Assembly (NCBI GenBank): GCA_937969415.1
Contig: CALBWK010000044.1
Location: forward strand, 67-64,066
Source: an uncultured Saprospiraceae bacterium
Lineage (GTDB): Bacteria; Bacteroidota; Bacteroidia; Chitinophagales; Saprospiraceae
Direction: 5' to 3'
Length of the DNA stretch: 64,000 nucleotides
In this document: positions 1 to 47,216 of the stretch, piece after piece
How positions within the stretch are numbered: the first letter of the stretch is position 1
How the letters are laid out: every line of letters starts with the position of its first letter
The notes under the pieces: model-generated
Databases searched by the model: none
Seen by the model: the letters and a program-made list of their open reading frames with translations, nothing else
What the model was told of the DNA's origin: nothing
Position numbers and translations under genes: made by a program

Positions 1-1829
1 ACAATAATTGCAACTTATTTCCACAAAATTATCGGTACCTGAGTCAAAATCATATGTACCAGTAAGGCCTTCAAAAATGTTATTTCGTATTATACTTTGA
101 TCACTACTTACAGCCGTAGCGACAATCGTTGATACATTATTTTCTGAAACGAACCGATTGCCATAAATCCTATAATTATTGACACCTGGTCCAAGATCGT
201 CAGCTTCCATACTAATTTTAGGGTCAGAAGTATTTCTGTCGAAAAAAGACCAACAAATATCAACCCTATTACCTTTCAGAACTTTTACATCTGAAAACTG
301 ATTGAAATAACAATTTGCCAAACCAAAAAAGTCCAAATTATTAGTGATAATGTCTGACCCAATGAATGTAGGTCTACTTAGTGCTTCACCTGTAGAAATA
401 AATAACCTATGAGCACCTGATGTACTGTTCGCTGTAATATGACTCTCTAAACATCTGACCCCTTCAAACTTGACCGTTGAGTCAGTAATTTCCAGTTTGC
501 TTTGAATAAACCTACAGTTAGAAATAAAAATATTATCACTAGTAGAATTATAATGTATATCCATTCCATAATTACAATCAAGGAATGTCACAAAATTAAG
601 ATCGATTTCAGTTGAAGATAGATCAATACCAATATTGGCTTGATTTATATCCACCCCATTCATAGAAATTTCTCCATCTGGTTCTACAGAAATCCCATTC
701 CACCGATCTCCACAAGTAAAGTGAACATCAAAGATAGACTGCTCAGCAATCAATCTACCCGAACTGGTGACTGCAATACCTAATCCTCTGCCTACAAAGA
801 TCGTAGCACCTCTAAATATAACCTCTGAGTCTACAATCAAATTCTGCTCTACCCTCCACTCGCCAGTAATTATATCTCCTGAATTTACTATACTCTGAGT
901 TAATAATGGAGAAGTGAAAGTTCTGCTCGGACATTCAGTTTGAAAATTGTCAACATAAATACTATGTGATCCATTAAGTTTCGCAATCATACGATCACCC
1001 TGACCATCAGTAAAGTTTCTTACAAAGCCTCTACAGTTGCCAGAATTAAATCCTGACATAACATTCGTCTCCCATATAGGCTCATAATACAAATTGCCGT
1101 TTGCATCTAATTGATATCCATAATTAACTGGAAATGGTTCAAAATCACCATTGGGTAAACTACAGAGCCCAACCGACTGTGACCAATCAACCCAACAGCC
1201 TTCATCTTCTGGTGTGGCAGGGTCATCAACTTGATATATTGGCCAAATAATTGTCGGGCTATTCTCCTCAGTTTCATGTCGAGGGACGATCGGTGTGTCC
1301 AATACAAAGTCCCTAGCATCATCGACACCTAATGGATCACCCACTTCCCAATCTGGAGGCAAATCTGATGGGCACCCACCGAAATGTTCTAAATCCAACA
1401 AATGCGCCAACTCATGGGCAAGTGTCCCATTTGGTTCAGAATAAGCTCTACTACCAGGTATACCATTCGCCTGACCTGTAGTTCCACCACAAGATGGTGG
1501 GCAATCTTCAACCAAATATACATGAATGAAATTGGGGTCAAACTCAATTGTGCAGTTCCCTTCAGTTAAAAAAGGTTCTGGTGAATTATGGAATAAATCA
1601 TCGTCTACCAAAATCTCTTCACACCAATTAAATCCGATACCATGGTGACCGTAAGCTTCTTCGCAATAATCTTTAGAACTTGTAACTATTGTGGGATCTA
1701 GTCGTTTCCCTTGAGAATCTTGACCTATCCATAGTTTGACATTGACATAATGTGTAATCTGACTAGTAGCTTCAGTCAAAAAGCAGAAAGAAAGAAAGAA
1801 AGAAAGAAAGAAAATTTGAAATTATACAT
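1..1829 (-). CDS. Secreted zinc-metalloprotease-like protein with repetitive beta-helix-like C-terminal part. The 3' end runs off the window. The only ATG is out of frame with the ORF body across a (TTTC)7 tract.
   Basis: Hand translation of the minus strand is open from 1779 to 1. It is absent from the supplied track because no stop lies in the window. It contains HELAHLLDLEH (HExxHxxxxxH) at 1416..1384. The ATG at 1829 reads MYNFKFSFFLSFFLSAF and then hits TGA at 1778..1776. The body frame is offset by one nucleotide. Confidence 0.6.
1786..1813 (-). repeat. Perfect tetranucleotide SSR: (GAAA)7 on the plus strand, (TTTC)7 on the coding strand, inside leader-peptide codons
   Basis: Direct reading: g at 1786, 1790, 1794, 1798, 1802, 1806 and 1810, each followed by aaa. 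Confidence 0.95.
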
Positions 1830-2163
1830 ATCTAAAGTTGTTGATTACATTCTTACATAACTGCCAGGAAGTGTATTTGGCAGATAATGCATATAGGTGA
1901 AAGTTAGCAATAAAAGTCTATTTCTCAAAACATTGAGAAAATTAACGTATGTAAGAATTTCTAATTCGAAATACCAAAATCAACAAAAGAGGAATCAATA
2001 TAAGGCAAGGAAGTAGGTGGATTAAGACGAATCTAGGGTAAGCCAAGTCTGTGATAGCTGCAATGAGAAACACATTCAGAACTCAAAAGAAAAGCACTTA
2101 CCATATTTTCAGGTTCATTGAAAGCCTTTCGTGTAGTTTTACTTCAAGAGCAAACTCACTCCC

Positions 2164-3863: not shown

Positions 3864-4808
3864 ATGGCAAAGATTCTAATTAATGATGGCATCCACCCTA
3901 CTGGACAAAAAATGCTAGAAGAGGCTGGCTTTGAAGTAGATCTCAACAAAATCGCTCAGGATGATCTGATGGCTAGACTACCAGAATACGATGCTATATG
4001 CGTCAGAAGCGCTACAAAAGTGAGAGAAGCACTCATCACGGCTTGCCCTAACTTAAAGGTGATCGGAAGAGGTGGCGTCGGACTGGATAACATAGATGTA
4101 GACTTTGCCAAGTCTAAAGGTGTTGCAGTTATCAATACCCCTGCTGCAAGTTCTAGGTCCGTAGCAGAGCTAGCCTTTGGACATATGCTAAGTGTCGCTA
4201 GGTTTCTATACAAATCTAATAGACATATGCCCAAGGATGGGAATACCACATTTAAGGCATTGAAGAAGTCCTACTCTAAGGGATTTGAACTGAGTGGTAA
4301 GACACTTGGGGTTATAGGTCTAGGTAGAATCGGCCAAGAAGCGATAAAAATTGCTCTCGGAATGGGTATGAAAGTCCTCGGAGTCGACCCCTACGCAAGT
4401 GATGTATCAGTAGATATACAATTAGGTGATACAAAAGTCTCAGTGCCTGTAACCAAGGTAACGATGGACGAGATGCTGGCTCAAGCAGATATTATAACCT
4501 TACATATACCGTTTACTGGAGCTCCTGTCCTGTCTACTTCTGAGTTTGCAAAAATGAAAGATGGTGTAGTCCTTGTCAATGCGTCTAGAGGTGGTACTGT
4601 CGATGAGGCAGCGCTCCTGGCCGCTCTAGAATCTGACAAAGTAAGAGCAGCTGGATTAGATGTCTTCGAGAATGAGCCTACGCCTCGCCAAGAGTTATTG
4701 CAACATCCCAATGTCTCTTGTACACCACACATAGGGGCCTCTACTGCAGAAGCACAAGAAAACATCGGTATAGAACTAGCAGAAAAGCTAATCAGCCAAC
4801 TCAGCTAA
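3864..4808 (+). CDS. D-isomer-specific 2-hydroxyacid dehydrogenase, probably short-form D-3-phosphoglycerate dehydrogenase
   Basis: NAD-binding motif GVIGLGRIGQE and a C-terminal HIGAST motif. I prefer the ATG at 3864 (MAKILINDG) over the TTG at 3834. Confidence 0.8.
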   Translation: MAKILINDGIHPTGQKMLEEAGFEVDLNKIAQDDLMARLPEYDAICVRSATKVREALITACPNLKVIGRGGVGLDNIDVDFAKSKGVAVINTPAASSRSVAELAFGHMLSVARFLYKSNRHMPKDGNTTFKALKKSYSKGFELSGKTLGVIGLGRIGQEAIKIALGMGMKVLGVDPYASDVSVDIQLGDTKVSVPVTKVTMDEMLAQADIITLHIPFTGAPVLSTSEFAKMKDGVVLVNASRGGTVDEAALLAALESDKVRAAGLDVFENEPTPRQELLQHPNVSCTPHIGASTAEAQENIGIELAEKLISQLS

Positions 4809-4823
4809 GCGCCTGACATTCAA

Positions 4824-5390
4824 CTAGTTACTAGCACCCAAAGGCAACAGCTCTAGGTCAAATACCAGTGGCTCGTGAGGACCTACATAGCCTGGAAATC
4901 CTCTTTCACCATAAGCTAGACGAGAGGGAATAAGTAGCTGGGCTCTTGTGCCGGGATTCATCAACTTGAGGGCTTCATTCCATCCTGGTATCATCTGACC
5001 GACATTGAACATCAGTGGTTGGTTTCTTTTATAGCTAGAGTCAAAGATTTTCCCATCTAATGTGTAGCCTGAGTAATGTGCCTTGCAAGGCTGTCCGTGT
5101 ACATAGGGCGCTCCATTGCCAGCTTGGTGTATGGCGTAGTAGAGACCAGAATTGGTTCTTTTGACATCTAACTCTTTTTCTACGGCATAATCAATCAAGC
5201 GATTTTCGTCCTTCTGGGCTTGCGTGCTAGGATTATCGTGGTAGTTGACATAGAGTTTTGAGATACCCATCATATCAATTTTCTTCTTAGGAGCTGCCGC
5301 AGTATTCCCGACTGATGAAGGGTTTGTCTTATCACTTTTACAACTAGGAAGAATTAGTGTTAGGACTAACAGAATTAAGCAATGTCTCAT
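4824..5390 (-). CDS. FKBP-type peptidyl-prolyl cis-trans isomerase lipoprotein (GldI-like architecture)
   Basis: Leader MRHCLILLVLTLILPSC. FKBP core: YSGYTLDGKIFDSS...GWNEAL...LLIPSRLAYGERG. Confidence 0.8.
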   Translation of the reverse strand: MRHCLILLVLTLILPSCKSDKTNPSSVGNTAAAPKKKIDMMGISKLYVNYHDNPSTQAQKDENRLIDYAVEKELDVKRTNSGLYYAIHQAGNGAPYVHGQPCKAHYSGYTLDGKIFDSSYKRNQPLMFNVGQMIPGWNEALKLMNPGTRAQLLIPSRLAYGERGFPGYVGPHEPLVFDLELLPLGASN

Positions 5391-5513
5391 AATTGGATTT
5401 TCGACCAAAAATACGGTTTAGAAGATAGTTAATATCCTAAGATGCTTAAGTAGGTGTATATTTACACATAGTTTTTTCATTATATGTAAAAACCACTCAG
5501 TCAAAGAATTACA

Positions 5514-6101
5514 ATGCACAAAACAGCCATCCCCAATGGTATATTTTTAGGAGTTGCTATGATGATCTGCTCGTATGTCATCTATATGGTGAACCCCGAC
5601 AAGTTCTTTCAAGCTAGACCGTTGCTGCTCTTATGTATCATATTTTTGATATTCCTCAAGACCGGTTTGGAAGCTAAAGCTGCTAATGGCCAGTATATCT
5701 CGTTTGGACAAGGTTTCAAGAATATGTTTGTCACCGGAGCTATCGGTATATTTCTGTGTGTGTTTTTTGAGTATTTCTTAGTCAACTACCTCAAAACGGA
5801 CTTGATAGAAATCAAACAAGCCATGGAATTAGAATCCATAGAACTCACACGAGAAGTCTTAAATGGCAAGATGGAAGAAGCGATGGATATAGCAGAAGAG
5901 CAAATAGAAAATGGCGTCACCATCAGCTTCAATAGCTATCTACAACAGTTCCTAACAAAGTTATTTATGCCAGTAGCGGCAGTGGCAGCTCTCATCGCTC
6001 TCATTATCAAAAGAACACCACCCCACTCTAAAGATGGTATAGCAAATACAAATAAAGATCCTGAAAATCGTTATGTCATTAACAAGGATAGAGAAGAGTA
6101 A
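5514..6101 (+). CDS. Multi-pass membrane protein, DUF4199-like
   Basis: 195 aa with four hydrophobic segments. It abuts a GT2 gene, a common Bacteroidota arrangement. Confidence 0.6.
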   Translation: MHKTAIPNGIFLGVAMMICSYVIYMVNPDKFFQARPLLLLCIIFLIFLKTGLEAKAANGQYISFGQGFKNMFVTGAIGIFLCVFFEYFLVNYLKTDLIEIKQAMELESIELTREVLNGKMEEAMDIAEEQIENGVTISFNSYLQQFLTKLFMPVAAVAALIALIIKRTPPHSKDGIANTNKDPENRYVINKDREE

Positions 6102-43560: not shown

Positions 43561-43704
43561 TTCTTAGTGCATAGTTTATTAGTGCATAGTGCATAGTGGG
43601 GCTGGCCGCGATGGCCTAGCTTCTAATTGTAAATGATGAATTATGAATTACTGGAGGGTTGGCCGCTTGTCACTCAATTGTAAATTTTGAATTATGAATT
43701 ACTG
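43561..43704. repeat. Degenerate tandem repeat cluster in the pfkA-ATPase spacer
   Basis: TTAGTGCATAGT occurs at 43564 and 43579, plus GCATAGT at 43591. A 29-mer AATTGTAAATnnTGAATTATGAATTACTG occurs at 43625..43653 and 43676..43704 (27 of 29 identical). TGGCCGC occurs at 43603 and 43660. Confidence 0.85.
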
Positions 43705-43891
43705 TTCACAATATTGAACTACCACTTTCTATTCCGATCGTAGCGGAGCGCAGAAGAGGAATCTTCTTCTTTTAGTGCTCCTGAGACTAGATGCAAGGGT
43801 AGTTCATTTTGCAGAGAACCCCCTCCCCAAGCAGTCATAAGACTTAATGAGTTCTTGGGAACTAATCTAAGCTGTAATTGGTATACAAATT

Positions 43892-43928
43892 GTAATATAC
43901 ATTTTGTAATATACAAAATGTATATTAC
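43892..43928. promoter_or_regulatory. Perfect 15-bp inverted repeat with a 7-nt spacer (candidate operator or hairpin) upstream of the ATPase gene
   Basis: GTAATATACATTTTG-taatata-CAAAATGTATATTAC. It ends 53 nt before the ATG at 43982. Confidence 0.6.
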
Positions 43929-43981: not shown

Positions 43982-45115
43982 ATGACAGAGATTAAGAATC
44001 CATTTATAACAAAGGGCTATATCAGCGAAGAATACTTCTGTGACAGAGAAGAAGAGACAGCTGATATCCTATCTGCTATCAACAATGGCAGAGACCTTAT
44101 CCTATACGGAAAGCGAAAGATGGGTAAATCAGCACTCATTAAGCATGTCTTTCACCAACTAGACAACAAAACCATTTCGACTTGGGTAGACCTCTTGCCC
44201 TCAGGCAACTTTGATGACTTCCTGACGCTGACAGCCAATGCCGTGCTCAATGCCTTTGAAGAAGAGGATCCTCTTTATAAAAAGATCTGGGCAGGAATGA
44301 AAAAGCTACGGCCTACCGTCACTTATGATGAAGTATCGGGCACACCAAATGTTTCTTTTGATCTTAGTGACACATCTGCTCGAATCAATACCCTTTCAGA
44401 ACTGATAAGACTTCTTGCCAGCAGCTGTAAGAAAGTCGTCATTGCCCTTGATGAGTTTCAGCAAATACAACAATATCCAGAACAGAATATTGCAGAGCAC
44501 TTAAGAACACTTCTCCAATCTCTACCCAATGTCACCGTCATATTTTCTGGAAGTGATCAGCATATGCTCTTGGACATGTTTAACAAAATAGATCAGCCCT
44601 TTTATGAATTTGGTCAACATCTCAAACTAGGCCCCATAGATTCAGATAAATACGTTGACTTTATCGAAGCCCACTTCAAAAAGAATAAAAGACAAATAGA
44701 ACGCGGCGACATCTACAATATCATCGAATGGTGCAACAACAGAACGATGAACATTCAAATACTCGCCAATCGACTCTATAGCCTACATCAAAAAACCATC
44801 TCAGAGGCCGATATCCAAAATATGAAAGACACTATCCTCAAAGAGAAAGAGGACATTTATTATACACTGAAGCGAGTCGTGAGCAAAGGACAATGGAACG
44901 TCTTGTCTGCCTTTGCTAGAGAAGGAAAAGTATATGCTCCTTATGGAAAGGCTTTTATGCAAAAACATGGCTTTACGAACTCTTCGATTATACGGCGTGT
45001 CGTACAGTTTTGTCTTGAAAGAGGCCTGCTCTATCAGAGTCACGATGGAGAAGAAAGCTTCTTTGAATTGGATGATGTATTTCTGAGGCGATGGGTTGAG
45101 ATGACGACGATATAA
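43982..45115 (+). CDS. Orphan P-loop ATPase (Arch_ATPase/DUF234-like) with a C-terminal winged-helix-like region
   Basis: Walker A GKRKMGKS. Walker B VIALDEFQ. C-terminal WNVLSAFA...RRVVQFCLERGLL. Confidence 0.7.
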   Translation: MTEIKNPFITKGYISEEYFCDREEETADILSAINNGRDLILYGKRKMGKSALIKHVFHQLDNKTISTWVDLLPSGNFDDFLTLTANAVLNAFEEEDPLYKKIWAGMKKLRPTVTYDEVSGTPNVSFDLSDTSARINTLSELIRLLASSCKKVVIALDEFQQIQQYPEQNIAEHLRTLLQSLPNVTVIFSGSDQHMLLDMFNKIDQPFYEFGQHLKLGPIDSDKYVDFIEAHFKKNKRQIERGDIYNIIEWCNNRTMNIQILANRLYSLHQKTISEADIQNMKDTILKEKEDIYYTLKRVVSKGQWNVLSAFAREGKVYAPYGKAFMQKHGFTNSSIIRRVVQFCLERGLLYQSHDGEESFFELDDVFLRRWVEMTTI

Positions 45116-45185
45116 TAGCATATAACTTTTTATTTCCCAATAAATAAAACTACTTTACAACTATTAACTAATAAAAATTGTGATC

Positions 45186-45742
45186 ATGAGAATTTCTTCT
45201 TTCTTCTTTCTTCTTTCTTCTTTACGCTAAGTACTAACTCAATTTTAGCGCAAGATGATTGTAACCCAATCTTTGAGATTATTGATGCCTCTAACTATTC
45301 TGATTCAGACCCTGATGCCACATATCCTAACCAAGACAATGATGCATGCAGTGATGTAATAATTACTTTTGTCGGTATGCCCGCAGACTGTGACTGCCAA
45401 CCTACTTCCGTAGTTGTAACAACAATAATAGAAAATGAAGAAATACGAATAGTGCAGTTTTCAAATCAGCTCTTTAATGTATTTAGAGATGAATTACCTT
45501 TCAATGGTCTGCCAAATATGTTTCCGTTCAATCAATGGGAGTTCTTAGCAGTAGGAGGCTTTATTTCCCAAAGTAATGTAATTCCATTTAACGTCGGAGT
45601 AGGTGAAAGTTATGTTTTTGATCTATGGACAAATATTGAAACATTTCCACTCAATATAAATACTAGTTTAGATTGCAATGGAGATGGAATCGCAGAGTTT
45701 TCAGTTAATACAGAATCTAACATCTTTGTGGAATGTCACTAA
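45186..45742 (+). CDS. Small Cys-rich secreted protein. Its ATG and leader are out of frame with the ORF body across a (TTTCTTC)4 tract, giving an apparent OFF state.
   Basis: The ATG at 45186 reads MRISSFFFLLSSLR-stop (TAA at 45228). The body frame is open from 45119 to 45742, with its first canonical start only at 45377. One extra heptamer would give MRISSFFFLLSSFFFTLSTNSILAQDDCNP... Confidence 0.6.
45193..45223 (+). repeat. Perfect heptanucleotide SSR, (TTTCTTC)4 plus TTT
   Basis: Direct reading of 45193..45220 as four identical 7-mers. Confidence 0.95.
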
Positions 45743-47172
45743 ATGTAAAAATACAATTAGCAGTACTCTGCTTTTTCCTTTTAAACACGCTTAGTTACGG
45801 TCAAAACTTGCTAGGAACAATATCGAATCCCACTGCAAATTTCAGACAGGAGCTAAGATTTCTCTCTACTGATACCGTTATACTTGCTTCTATAGATTTT
45901 GACAATATAGACAACGAACCATTCAGTAGATATGTCTATAATGGTAATGATTGGGTATTCGATACAAAAGAAAACATAAGACTTAATGACAATGCATCCT
46001 TAACGGACTATGCGTTATCCTGCGATGGCCGTACGTTGATAACCTTGTCTATAATAGATCGACTAAGTCCAAATTCAGATAGAGTGACAGCACAAATTGA
46101 TGTGTTCCAGAAAACCAATGCAGATTGGATATTAATTCAGAAAATTGACTCTCTAGACTTAAGGACAAATGGTGATTTTCTTTCACTTAGATTCAGCATA
46201 TCAGATGATGGTGGGGTTCTAGCTTTAGTAGAAATCGATGGTTCAGCCTCAGGTGGTGACGATCAAGCATCTATATTTACAATATACAACTTAGACTTTG
46301 TCTCTAACAATTACAGATCAGTCTATGCAGACACCTTGGTTTCTTTTAGGATATGGGATGCAAGGATAGATATTTCTGGAAATGGACAAACTGTTGCTAT
46401 AGGCCAAAAAGAGCAAGCAAGAGAAACATTAAGCATTTATGATCAAAACACAGAATGGGAAAAAACTGAGAGTTTAAATATAAACAATAGTTCAGCTCCT
46501 AATACTCCTAGTTCTTTGCCCAGTATAAATTACGACGGTAATCTAATAAGTTTTGTAAAAAATCCAGCACCACTAACAAATGTTGAGTCTTACAATTTGG
46601 TCTACAACAGACAAGAACAACGCATAGACAGCCTACCCACTAGGGGACCAGGCATAGTGCTCGACAGGCATAAAATAAGCAGACAAGGAAATAGATTACT
46701 CTCAACACACGGAGATGAAGGTCAAATCTTACAGGACACTGTACAGTACTACTCGATGATGAAATATGAAAATGGTGATTGGATAAAAGAATTCCAAATC
46801 GCCTATGATGTACTCCCAATTGGCTATACAGCTGGAACAAACTTACAGTTTGATTGCGCAGGGCAAAGATTCTCTACCAGTGATCTGGATGGCGTCATTT
46901 ACATTTATGATCTAGATAGGATCAATTCTGTTGCGGAGATACACCATAATGAGAATCTTGTCATCTATCCTAATCCACATCGACATAACTTTTATATTGA
47001 TGGAGAGCATATAAGGAATCAGTCTGTACGAGCCTACGACTTACTAGGTCACCAAGTCTCTATTCAGGGTAATCATATCGATGGATACGAATTAGTTGGA
47101 CCATCTGGAATATATACAATTAGGTGGGAAGACAAACAGAATTATTTTACTCAAAAAATTATCAAGCTCTGA
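45733..47172 (+). CDS. Secreted beta-propeller-like repeat protein with a T9SS C-terminal sorting domain
   Basis: Signal peptide. Recurrent S.DG..L/I blade-like motifs (LSCDGRTLI, ISDDGGVLA, ISGNGQTVA, INYDGNLIS). C-terminus VIYPNP...GIYTIRW...QKIIKL. Start overlaps the upstream ORF by 10 nt. Confidence 0.7.
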   Translation: MSLNVKIQLAVLCFFLLNTLSYGQNLLGTISNPTANFRQELRFLSTDTVILASIDFDNIDNEPFSRYVYNGNDWVFDTKENIRLNDNASLTDYALSCDGRTLITLSIIDRLSPNSDRVTAQIDVFQKTNADWILIQKIDSLDLRTNGDFLSLRFSISDDGGVLALVEIDGSASGGDDQASIFTIYNLDFVSNNYRSVYADTLVSFRIWDARIDISGNGQTVAIGQKEQARETLSIYDQNTEWEKTESLNINNSSAPNTPSSLPSINYDGNLISFVKNPAPLTNVESYNLVYNRQEQRIDSLPTRGPGIVLDRHKISRQGNRLLSTHGDEGQILQDTVQYYSMMKYENGDWIKEFQIAYDVLPIGYTAGTNLQFDCAGQRFSTSDLDGVIYIYDLDRINSVAEIHHNENLVIYPNPHRHNFYIDGEHIRNQSVRAYDLLGHQVSIQGNHIDGYELVGPSGIYTIRWEDKQNYFTQKIIKL

Positions 47173-47173
47173 C

Positions 47174-47216
47174 AAAAAAAGGCGGCACCTGAAAATTCAG
47201 ATGCCGCCTTTACTTT
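47174..47216. terminator. Terminator hairpin between convergent genes, strongest for the minus strand
   Basis: 9-bp stem AAGGCGGCA/TGCCGCCTT with an inner CTGA/TCAG stem. Flanked by A7 on the left and a T-rich stretch on the right. Confidence 0.75.

Follow-up and report, generated by a model that had tools for sequence, protein, structure and literature searches.

The small gene at positions 45186–45742 of the 64-kb stretch of DNA analysed here (the window; coordinates are window positions) is probably a slipped-strand phase-variable, or contingency, gene of the Opa/NeuO type that was captured in its OFF state. A perfect heptanucleotide repeat lies within the codons for its predicted signal peptide, and the gain or loss of repeat units at replication would shift the frame of the ATG at 45186 with respect to that of the body of the gene; since seven is not a multiple of three, a change of one unit toggles the frame. 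Tracts of 2, 5 or 8 units would yield a precursor such as MRISSFFFLLSSFFFTLSTNSILA/QDDC, which would be exported by the Sec pathway and cleaved before the Gln, and tracts of 3 or 4 units would bring translation to a stop after 14 codons. Such a switch would be reversible. The mechanism is a textbook one; the setting, an uncultured marine member of the Bacteroidota in which the gene forms a cassette with a gene for cargo of the type IX secretion system (T9SS), is less familiar.

The repeat tract, the reading frames and the small secreted protein

The repeat, (TTTCTTC)x4.4, occupies positions 45193–45223 of the plus strand (TRF: period 7, 4.4 copies, 100% matches). It is made up of four perfect TTTCTTC units (45193–45220), as an initial annotation made from the letters of the window had read them, followed by a partial TTT. 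The tract starts 7 nucleotides (nt) after the ATG at 45186. Its coding strand consists of pyrimidines only, and the predicted signal peptide takes its hydrophobic core from it. Translation from the native start codon (45186–45188, plus strand; ATG AGA ATT, MRI) in the four-unit state of the window ends after 14 codons, at the TAA at 45228–45230, and gives the OFF-state product MRISSFFFLLSSLR (45186–45230, plus strand); the short open reading frame (ORF) had been described with the same limits before. The frame of the body is open from 45119 to 45742, that is, for 207 codons without a stop. Its first ATG, GTG or TTG is at 45377, preceded by 86 startless codons, so the earlier claim that the frame has no usual start codon up to that point was correct. 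Antisense shadows aside, no other open frame of 150 or more codons in the window has over 40 startless codons.

The insertion of one unit (+7 nt) fuses the two frames and produces the full precursor, MRISSFFFLLSSFFFTLSTNSILAQDDCNPIFEI; arithmetic indicates that the loss of two units (–14 nt) also rejoins the ATG and the body, and that tracts of 2, 5 and 8 units are in frame (ON) and those of 3, 4, 6 and 7 units out of frame (OFF). The prediction that one heptamer more or two fewer would create a typical signal peptide was therefore upheld, by translation in the case of the insertion and by arithmetic in that of the deletion. The small gene thus has a perfect repeat, with a unit that is not a multiple of three, between its start codon and its body, and whole-unit changes alternate between a full-length ORF and an early stop with the body otherwise intact. 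The rest of the signal peptide (TLSTNSILA; 45224–45250, plus strand) is encoded in the frame of the body and ends at a predicted signal-peptidase I site, ILA/Q. The segment at 45251–45742 (plus strand), defined from the family alignment, the homologues and the codon usage, encodes the mature protein, 163 amino acids counted from the Gln, plus the stop codon.

When the window was scanned for perfect simple sequence repeats (SSRs; unit of 1–12 nt, at least three copies, at least 15 nt), only two were found in the 64 kb, the heptamer tract and a (TTTC) tract at 1785–1813. Third-order Markov simulations (n = 200) rendered a mean of 0.105 such SSRs with a unit of at least 4 nt, and none of them reached 24 nt; the presence of two in the window is more than chance. 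Given the peptide FFFLLSSFFF and the codon usage of the genome, the probability of a perfect period-7 repeat in the DNA was 1.3 × 10–5, which indicates that the repeat is a feature of the DNA and not a by-product of the peptide. Both tracts (31 nt at 45193–45223 and 29 nt at 1785–1813) are homopyrimidine/homopurine mirror repeats in which the pyrimidine strand is the coding one. Mirror repeats of this kind can form H-DNA (a triplex), which could raise the instability of the tract. Tuned phase variation is expected to show itself in SSRs placed at the N-terminal end of genes (PMC3315296).

Judged from its sequence, the body is a real, conserved gene that starts before 45377. A word-index homology search with the mature protein retrieved only the protein itself (P0001), and its family came to light only when 1.84 billion representatives were searched exhaustively with HMMER for matches to the small protein. 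The matches were P0002 (191 amino acids, 58% identity, E = 5 × 10–58), P0004 (171 amino acids, 34% identity) and P0007 (176 amino acids, 26% identity); three further hits, P0003, P0005 and P0006, were larger repetitive proteins matched over short stretches only, and were disregarded. The small protein is Cys-rich, with DACSD, CxC and DCNGDG motifs, and the family alignment has Cys positions that are invariant, along with the motifs DAC-D, C-x-C and DC[ND]G[DN]G. The annotated product, P0001, is a protein of 121 amino acids that starts at the ATG at 45377 and has no signal peptide. The invariant residues E18, S23, D40, A41, C42 and D44 are, however, encoded 5′ of this ATG, which is therefore not the native start. 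Codon usage points in the same direction: the frame of the body scored +0.09 bits per codon as against –0.75 and –1.30 for the other two frames, and the score before 45377 was at least as good as that after it. That translation might begin at 45377, which had been named as an outcome that would speak against a switch, was accordingly not borne out. The true start of the small gene was missed, and genes such as this one are systematically mis-called in metagenome-assembled genomes. The proposal that the ATG at 45186 is the true start gained support from its conservation, since the ATGAGAATT start (MRI) is also present in L083 and L088, two contigs that carry a 26%-identical homologue. Comparison with the orthologue in contig L081 gave a proportion of non-synonymous differences (pN) of 0.26 and of synonymous differences (pS) of 0.75 (saturated); since pN is well below pS, purifying selection has dominated the history of the gene.

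A Gln residue directly follows the hydrophobic leader in every member of the family (ILA/Q in the window, IYS/Q in P0002, LPA/Q in L083 and AFG/Q in P0004). In the Bacteroidetes, cleavage by signal peptidase I exposes a Gln, a regularity known as the Q-rule (PMC5837995, PMC10653852). The leader of the ON state, MRISSFFFLLSSFFFTLSTNSILA/QDDC, has a positive n-region and a hydrophobic core, as expected for Sec-dependent export and cleavage by signal peptidase I under the Q-rule (signal peptides and cleavage sites were judged by eye). The ORF had been taken for that of a secreted protein, and its predicted leader followed by Gln agrees with this; export and cleavage before the Gln are thus predicted. 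The small protein matches no Pfam or NCBIfam model, T9SS sorting domains included, so it does not itself qualify as T9SS cargo. The mature protein is probably a beta-sandwich: the structure model, a weak one (predicted local distance difference test score, pLDDT, of 60.7), is all-beta, and its structural matches are generic immunoglobulin-like beta-sandwiches only (best E = 7.5 × 10–3, TM-score ≤0.45), from which no function can be read.

The number of units differs between two near-identical genomes. A 7.2-kb Logan contig from run ERR9287622 (L098), an independent assembly of the window strain found by means of the exact T9SS protein encoded next to the small gene, contains three heptamer units instead of the four present in the window. 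On the 3′ side of an intergenic repeat, the two sequences share 5,355 aligned positions with no mismatches and a single 7-nt gap, which corresponds to one heptamer unit; the rest of the 6.2-kb alignment shows one single-nucleotide polymorphism and one 38-nt indel in the intergenic repeat. Repeat number is therefore polymorphic, with two alleles from two assemblies, and the search for length heterogeneity that had been suggested as a check gave a positive answer at the level of assemblies. The three-unit allele reads MRISSFFFLLYAKY up to a stop codon, and is also OFF. Logan assembles with k = 31, and a three-unit contig needs k-mers spanning both flanks, which are found only in three-unit molecules; since these k-mers span the tract and its flanks, a four-unit tract cannot collapse into a three-unit contig. 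The intergenic region between the PFK and ATPase genes upstream (window 43565–43922; L098:820–880) contains degenerate repeats of 7 and 14 nt; L098 has two copies of a unit of ∼38 nt (TAGTGCATAGTGGGGCTG...TAGCTTCT) and the window one, so that the two assemblies also differ in the length of a second repeat.

Repeats in relatives of the gene and at a second locus

Three of the four lineages of the family have a repeat at the 5′-end of the gene: a 7-mer in the window, a 10-mer in L083 and an upstream 7-mer in L081. In L083 and L088, the ATGAGAATT start is followed by a perfect (GTTCTTCTTT)x3.8 repeat that leaves the ATG out of frame; the removal of one decamer unit from L083 gives MRILISFFFVLLCSSNTLPA/QDC, in frame. 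L081, with a 58% homologue, reads in frame from a TTG start codon and has three heptamer units in the leader, of which one is imperfect. It also bears a perfect (TCAGTTA)x3.4 repeat (L081:36–59), 22 nt upstream of the TTG and with an in-frame stop before the ORF, which could be a promoter or 5′-untranslated-region repeat switch. The P0004 lineage, represented by seven contigs from several metagenomes, reads ATGAAACGT(ACTTCTT)x1.9 and then runs into a TAG, out of frame, in all seven. The lengths sampled are thus in frame in L081 and out of frame in both alleles of the window strain, in L083/L088 and in the P0004 lineage. A census of the related loci (170 kb) showed perfect SSRs of at least 15 nt only at the 5′-ends of members of the small-gene family; the background was 10 in 1.24 Mb of unrelated control loci. 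A profile scan of metagenomes returned only additional contigs of the P0004 lineage, and a search of metagenomes with the exact flanks of the tract and a variable gap between them gave no match.

The second SSR of the window belongs to an unrelated gene on the minus strand. It is a leader repeat, (TTTC)x7.25, located at 1785–1813, which reads (AGAA)x7.25 on the plus strand. The minus-strand ATG at 1829 opens a short OFF-state ORF, MYNFKFSFFLSFFLSAF (1776–1829, minus strand). A long open frame of more than 600 codons (1–1821, minus strand) runs off the start of the window; it reads FCFLTEATS/QITHY and contains HELAHLLDLEH, a zinc-protease-like motif. This long frame, which includes FCFLTEATSQITHY, joins the ATG at 1829 only when one TTTC unit is added or two are removed. 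The initial annotation had reported the same design at 1786–1813, one unit short of frame, and this description holds. The (TTTC)7 tract would control a large, protease-like secreted protein in the way proposed for the small gene. The protein has no significant match to a Pfam or NCBIfam family, and no homologues were found at E ≤ 1 × 10–10. The slot downstream of ExbB-ExbD-ExbD (window 1–2160, minus strand; downstream of ExbD in L099–L103) is variable: the window has in it the large protease-like gene, and relatives have either a gene for 315 amino acids plus a Por_Secre_tail gene for 153 amino acids, or a single Por_Secre_tail gene for 512 amino acids. A comparison based on ExbD found only relatives with other genes in the slot, and one based on ExbB found none.

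The three different repeats of the family and the tetramer in the unrelated protease-like gene allow a broader suggestion, which we put forward tentatively and hold to be possible rather than probable: that leader or 5′-end repeats act as a recurrent, independently re-evolved switch of swappable cassettes made up of secreted-protein and T9SS-cargo genes in a clade of uncultured marine Bacteroidota. If this were so, a repeat-based contingency system would operate in a phylum and a free-living habitat in which DNA inversion is the main known source of on/off variation, and it might help the cells to escape phages or grazers directed at surface proteins.

Competing explanations for the out-of-frame leader

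Several observations weigh against a functional switch. The copy number of the tract, four units, is low when compared with classical contingency loci, and switching may be slow. Both known alleles, with 3 and 4 units, are OFF, and an in-frame allele of the strain was not observed. L098 and the window possibly come from one sample, and the claim that the 31-nt tract cannot have collapsed depends on the k value of 31 for Logan. The contigs L083 and L088 have the same number of decamers, with no variation between them, and these two may also come from one sample. The cassette that contains the small gene is dispensable: the closest relatives lack it or have other genes in its place. The P0004 lineage has a fixed out-of-frame leader with only about 1.9 units. 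Two contigs of this lineage, L086 and L087, carry a 1-nt deletion in the body of the small gene; in four of the five close contigs (L084, L085, L089 and L090), a change from A5 to A4 shifts the frame of the T9SS gene; and the small gene has a pN/pS ratio of 0.27–0.61, that of its neighbour being 0.03 or less. The gene of this lineage looks locked off and decaying.

Other differences were seen in that lineage. The A5/A4 site is at L082:3245; the T9SS gene is split into parts of 250 and 243 amino acids in the four contigs, and is intact (484 amino acids) only in L082. The end of the ATPase gene (L082:1840–1880, also L084–L087 and L089) reads LRGG and a stop codon where the window, in another frame, reads LRRWVEMTTI and a stop codon (45080–45115), and L086 and L087 have a 1-nt deletion further upstream in the same gene. 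In the P0004 lineage, decay appears to affect the entire neighbourhood.

These facts are the strength of the explanation that competes best with a switch, namely that the small gene is a plain, recent pseudogene: slippage in an incidental T/C-rich leader repeat would have killed a dispensable gene, and the tract would now drift neutrally. The OFF state of both alleles, the loss or replacement of the cassette in the nearest relatives, and the fixed out-of-frame leader of the P0004 lineage, with its extra frameshifts and raised pN/pS in a set of seven contigs, are all as this explanation would have it, and, in codon usage, the body ranks at the low end of the genes in the window. Even so, we consider it rather unlikely. 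The body in the window has 207 stop-free codons and no further stops or frameshifts, its pN is well below its pS with respect to L081, and the partner gene is fully intact; the ATPase gene, the T9SS gene and the small-gene body are all undamaged, and only the SSR disrupts the cassette. The tract is perfect and uninterrupted. Within the 64 kb, the one-unit-off design recurs in another, unrelated secreted-protein gene, and diverged members of the family show, at the corresponding 5′ position, perfect repeats that are independent and differ in their units, something that incidental decay fails to explain. In addition, a pseudogene would still need the same slippage of the SSR, and would differ from a switch in rate and selection only. 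The initial annotation had stated that orthologues with the out-of-frame configuration of the window and accumulating stops in the body would indicate a plain pseudogene; this was found in weak form, as additional frameshifts in some contigs of the P0004 lineage, and not in the body of the window gene.

It is highly improbable that the protein is made despite the frame break, whether through ribosomal frameshifting, transcriptional slippage, or a start at 45377 or at a non-canonical codon. The annotated P0001, of 121 amino acids, does start at 45377, and the decamer unit of L083 contains a TTG, so that an in-frame TTG is always present there and was used by the gene caller. A start at 45377 would nevertheless deprive the protein of its signal peptide and of 42 conserved mature residues, including E18, S23 and the DAC-D motif, and the repeat unit of the window contains no ATG, GTG or TTG. 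With respect to frameshifting, the shift needed is –1 in the window, +1 in L083 and L082, and none in L081, which no single recoding rule would accommodate; the heptamer does not conform to the canonical slippery site, X XXY YYZ, and the RNA that follows the tract is no more structured than its shuffled versions (z = –0.23). Programmed frameshifting and alternative initiation were rejected on the basis of the conserved residues, the direction of the shift and the unstructured RNA. Finally, an artefact of assembly or sequencing, with a true length that is in frame and a wrong one in the window and/or L098, is hardly credible: the two assemblies do disagree on the length of the tract, and the data are at the level of assemblies only, but a 7-nt unit error in a tract of 24–31 nt is atypical of short-read or de Bruijn assembly, the three-unit k-mers exist only in three-unit molecules (by the k = 31 argument), neither assembly is in frame, two unrelated, independently assembled metagenome lineages have out-of-frame leaders too, and the pattern recurs across four independent lineages.

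These considerations favour a phase-variable gene captured OFF. Of the idea put forward initially, that an SSR in the leader uncouples the ATG from the ORF of a secreted protein, the anatomy, the conservation of the start and the length difference stand in its favour; the small protein has no T9SS sorting domain, which only its partner has, and both alleles are OFF.

Known switches and the cassette in its genomic slot

Among the known systems closest to the small gene is opa of Neisseria, in which CTCTT repeats lie in the leader-peptide codons (PMC3960869; bioRxiv 10.1101/2020.09.16.300947). Both genes have, between the start codon and the mature protein, a pyrimidine-rich unit that is not a multiple of three and that encodes the core of the signal peptide; in both, whole-unit slippage shifts the frame of the ATG, and the product is exported (a prediction in the case of the window gene). 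The opa unit is of 5 nt instead of 7, and its tracts are longer, with the ON state at 6, 9 or 12 units, as against the 3–4 units seen in the window strain. The proteins are unrelated in sequence, and the host of opa is a host-restricted pathogen, unlike the uncultured marine Bacteroidota bacterium of the window; the window gene, in turn, differs in that it heads a two-gene cassette with a T9SS-cargo gene. Switching of opa occurs at about 10–3 for each cell in a generation.

In E. coli K1, neuO has an (AAGACTC)n repeat in its 5′ coding region, of 3–53 units, which is ON only at multiples of three; it is OFF in 66% of genomes (PMC13001214). It shares with the window gene a heptanucleotide in the 5′ coding region, tracts of as few as 3 units, one third of the length classes being ON, and a sequenced state that is OFF (for neuO, in most genomes). 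The neuO repeat is, however, translated into part of a cytoplasmic enzyme, and the gene is borne by a prophage; the repeat of the window lies among the codons of a predicted Sec signal peptide, and phage relatives were not found. In nanH3 of Gardnerella, a poly-C tract is located just after the signal-peptide codons (bioRxiv 10.1101/2020.09.16.300947). As in the window gene (P0001, from 45377), an out-of-frame length leads to an annotation that begins at an internal start and has no signal peptide; the tract is a homopolymer, and its variation was seen within a strain by cloning and sequencing, whereas two assemblies were compared for the window gene.

Surface structures of Bacteroides vary in phase by means of invertible promoters, and on/off variation in the Bacteroidota is known mainly through DNA inversion. 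This resembles what is proposed for the window gene in that surface or secreted products are turned on and off, in the same phylum; it differs in being a site-specific DNA inversion and not a slippage of repeats. The literature yielded no paper tying slipped-strand variation to T9SS cargo. If the switch is real, free-living marine Bacteroidota would share repeat-slippage bet-hedging with host-adapted Neisseria, Haemophilus and E. coli K1, and secreted proteins, probably including surface proteins delivered by the T9SS, would be switched on and off.

The accessory cassette (45119–47172, plus strand), delimited by blastn against L091 and by the gene content of relatives, consists of the small secreted-protein gene and the T9SS-cargo gene, and exactly occupies the interval bounded by the ATPase gene's stop codon (45115) and a shared terminator. 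The downstream gene (45733–47172, plus strand) encodes a protein of 479 amino acids with its own predicted signal peptide (SYG/QNL) and a type A C-terminal T9SS sorting domain (PF18962, 29.9 bits, cut-off 27; TIGR04183, 31.5 bits, cut-off 23); its start overlaps the end of the small gene by 10 nt. The terminator, a GC-rich hairpin of 15 pairs at 47178–47211 that is shared with a convergent gene for 474 amino acids, ends the transcription unit of the cassette. Because the small gene overlaps the start of its partner, both share one terminator and ∼500 nt would remain untranslated in the OFF state, the OFF state may also lower the expression of the T9SS partner, through lost translational coupling or polarity.

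The small gene is followed by a gene for ∼480 amino acids in all four lineages of the family. The same overlapping pair (4–10 nt of overlap) is present in L082 and L083, and a Por_Secre_tail match was obtained for the partner in L082 and L083 and in L089 and L090, where it is split; for the L081 partner no such match is recorded. No relatives were found among viral contigs. The window has no Rfam match, and a scan for sigma-70 promoters gave 9 sites, 8.7 being expected, and is uninformative, this promoter type being the wrong one for Bacteroidota.

A scan of genome contigs with PFK gave, among the matches listed, identities of 66–67% at best (Cyclobacteriaceae, Belliella). The closest relatives of the window (85–87% nucleotide identity) keep the same order of flanking genes, with flanks of the slot that are 85–89% identical in nucleotide sequence. 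In the closest of all, L091 (85% nucleotide identity), the blastn alignment stops at 45118 and resumes at 47172 with nothing in between, so the slot is empty, and the terminator hairpin directly follows the ATPase gene; L092, L095 and L096 have a SIMPL gene and a gene for 211 amino acids in the same place. The slot that runs from the ATPase stop codon to the terminator (window 45116–47177; L091:12840–12900; L092:6946–8312) is a site of cassette swapping. With respect to the L089 lineage, the flanking proteins are mostly 76–82% identical (two poorly conserved ones, 58–59%), the small protein 33% and the T9SS protein 29%. Within the sister lineage, the T9SS-cargo gene of L087 (∼4450–5900) is a wholly different allele from that of L082 (2522–3972), with 56% nucleotide identity between flanks that are 97–98% identical, which suggests the replacement of an allele by recombination in a surface-protein gene. 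The swapped cassettes and this replacement point to strong diversifying pressure on these surface proteins.

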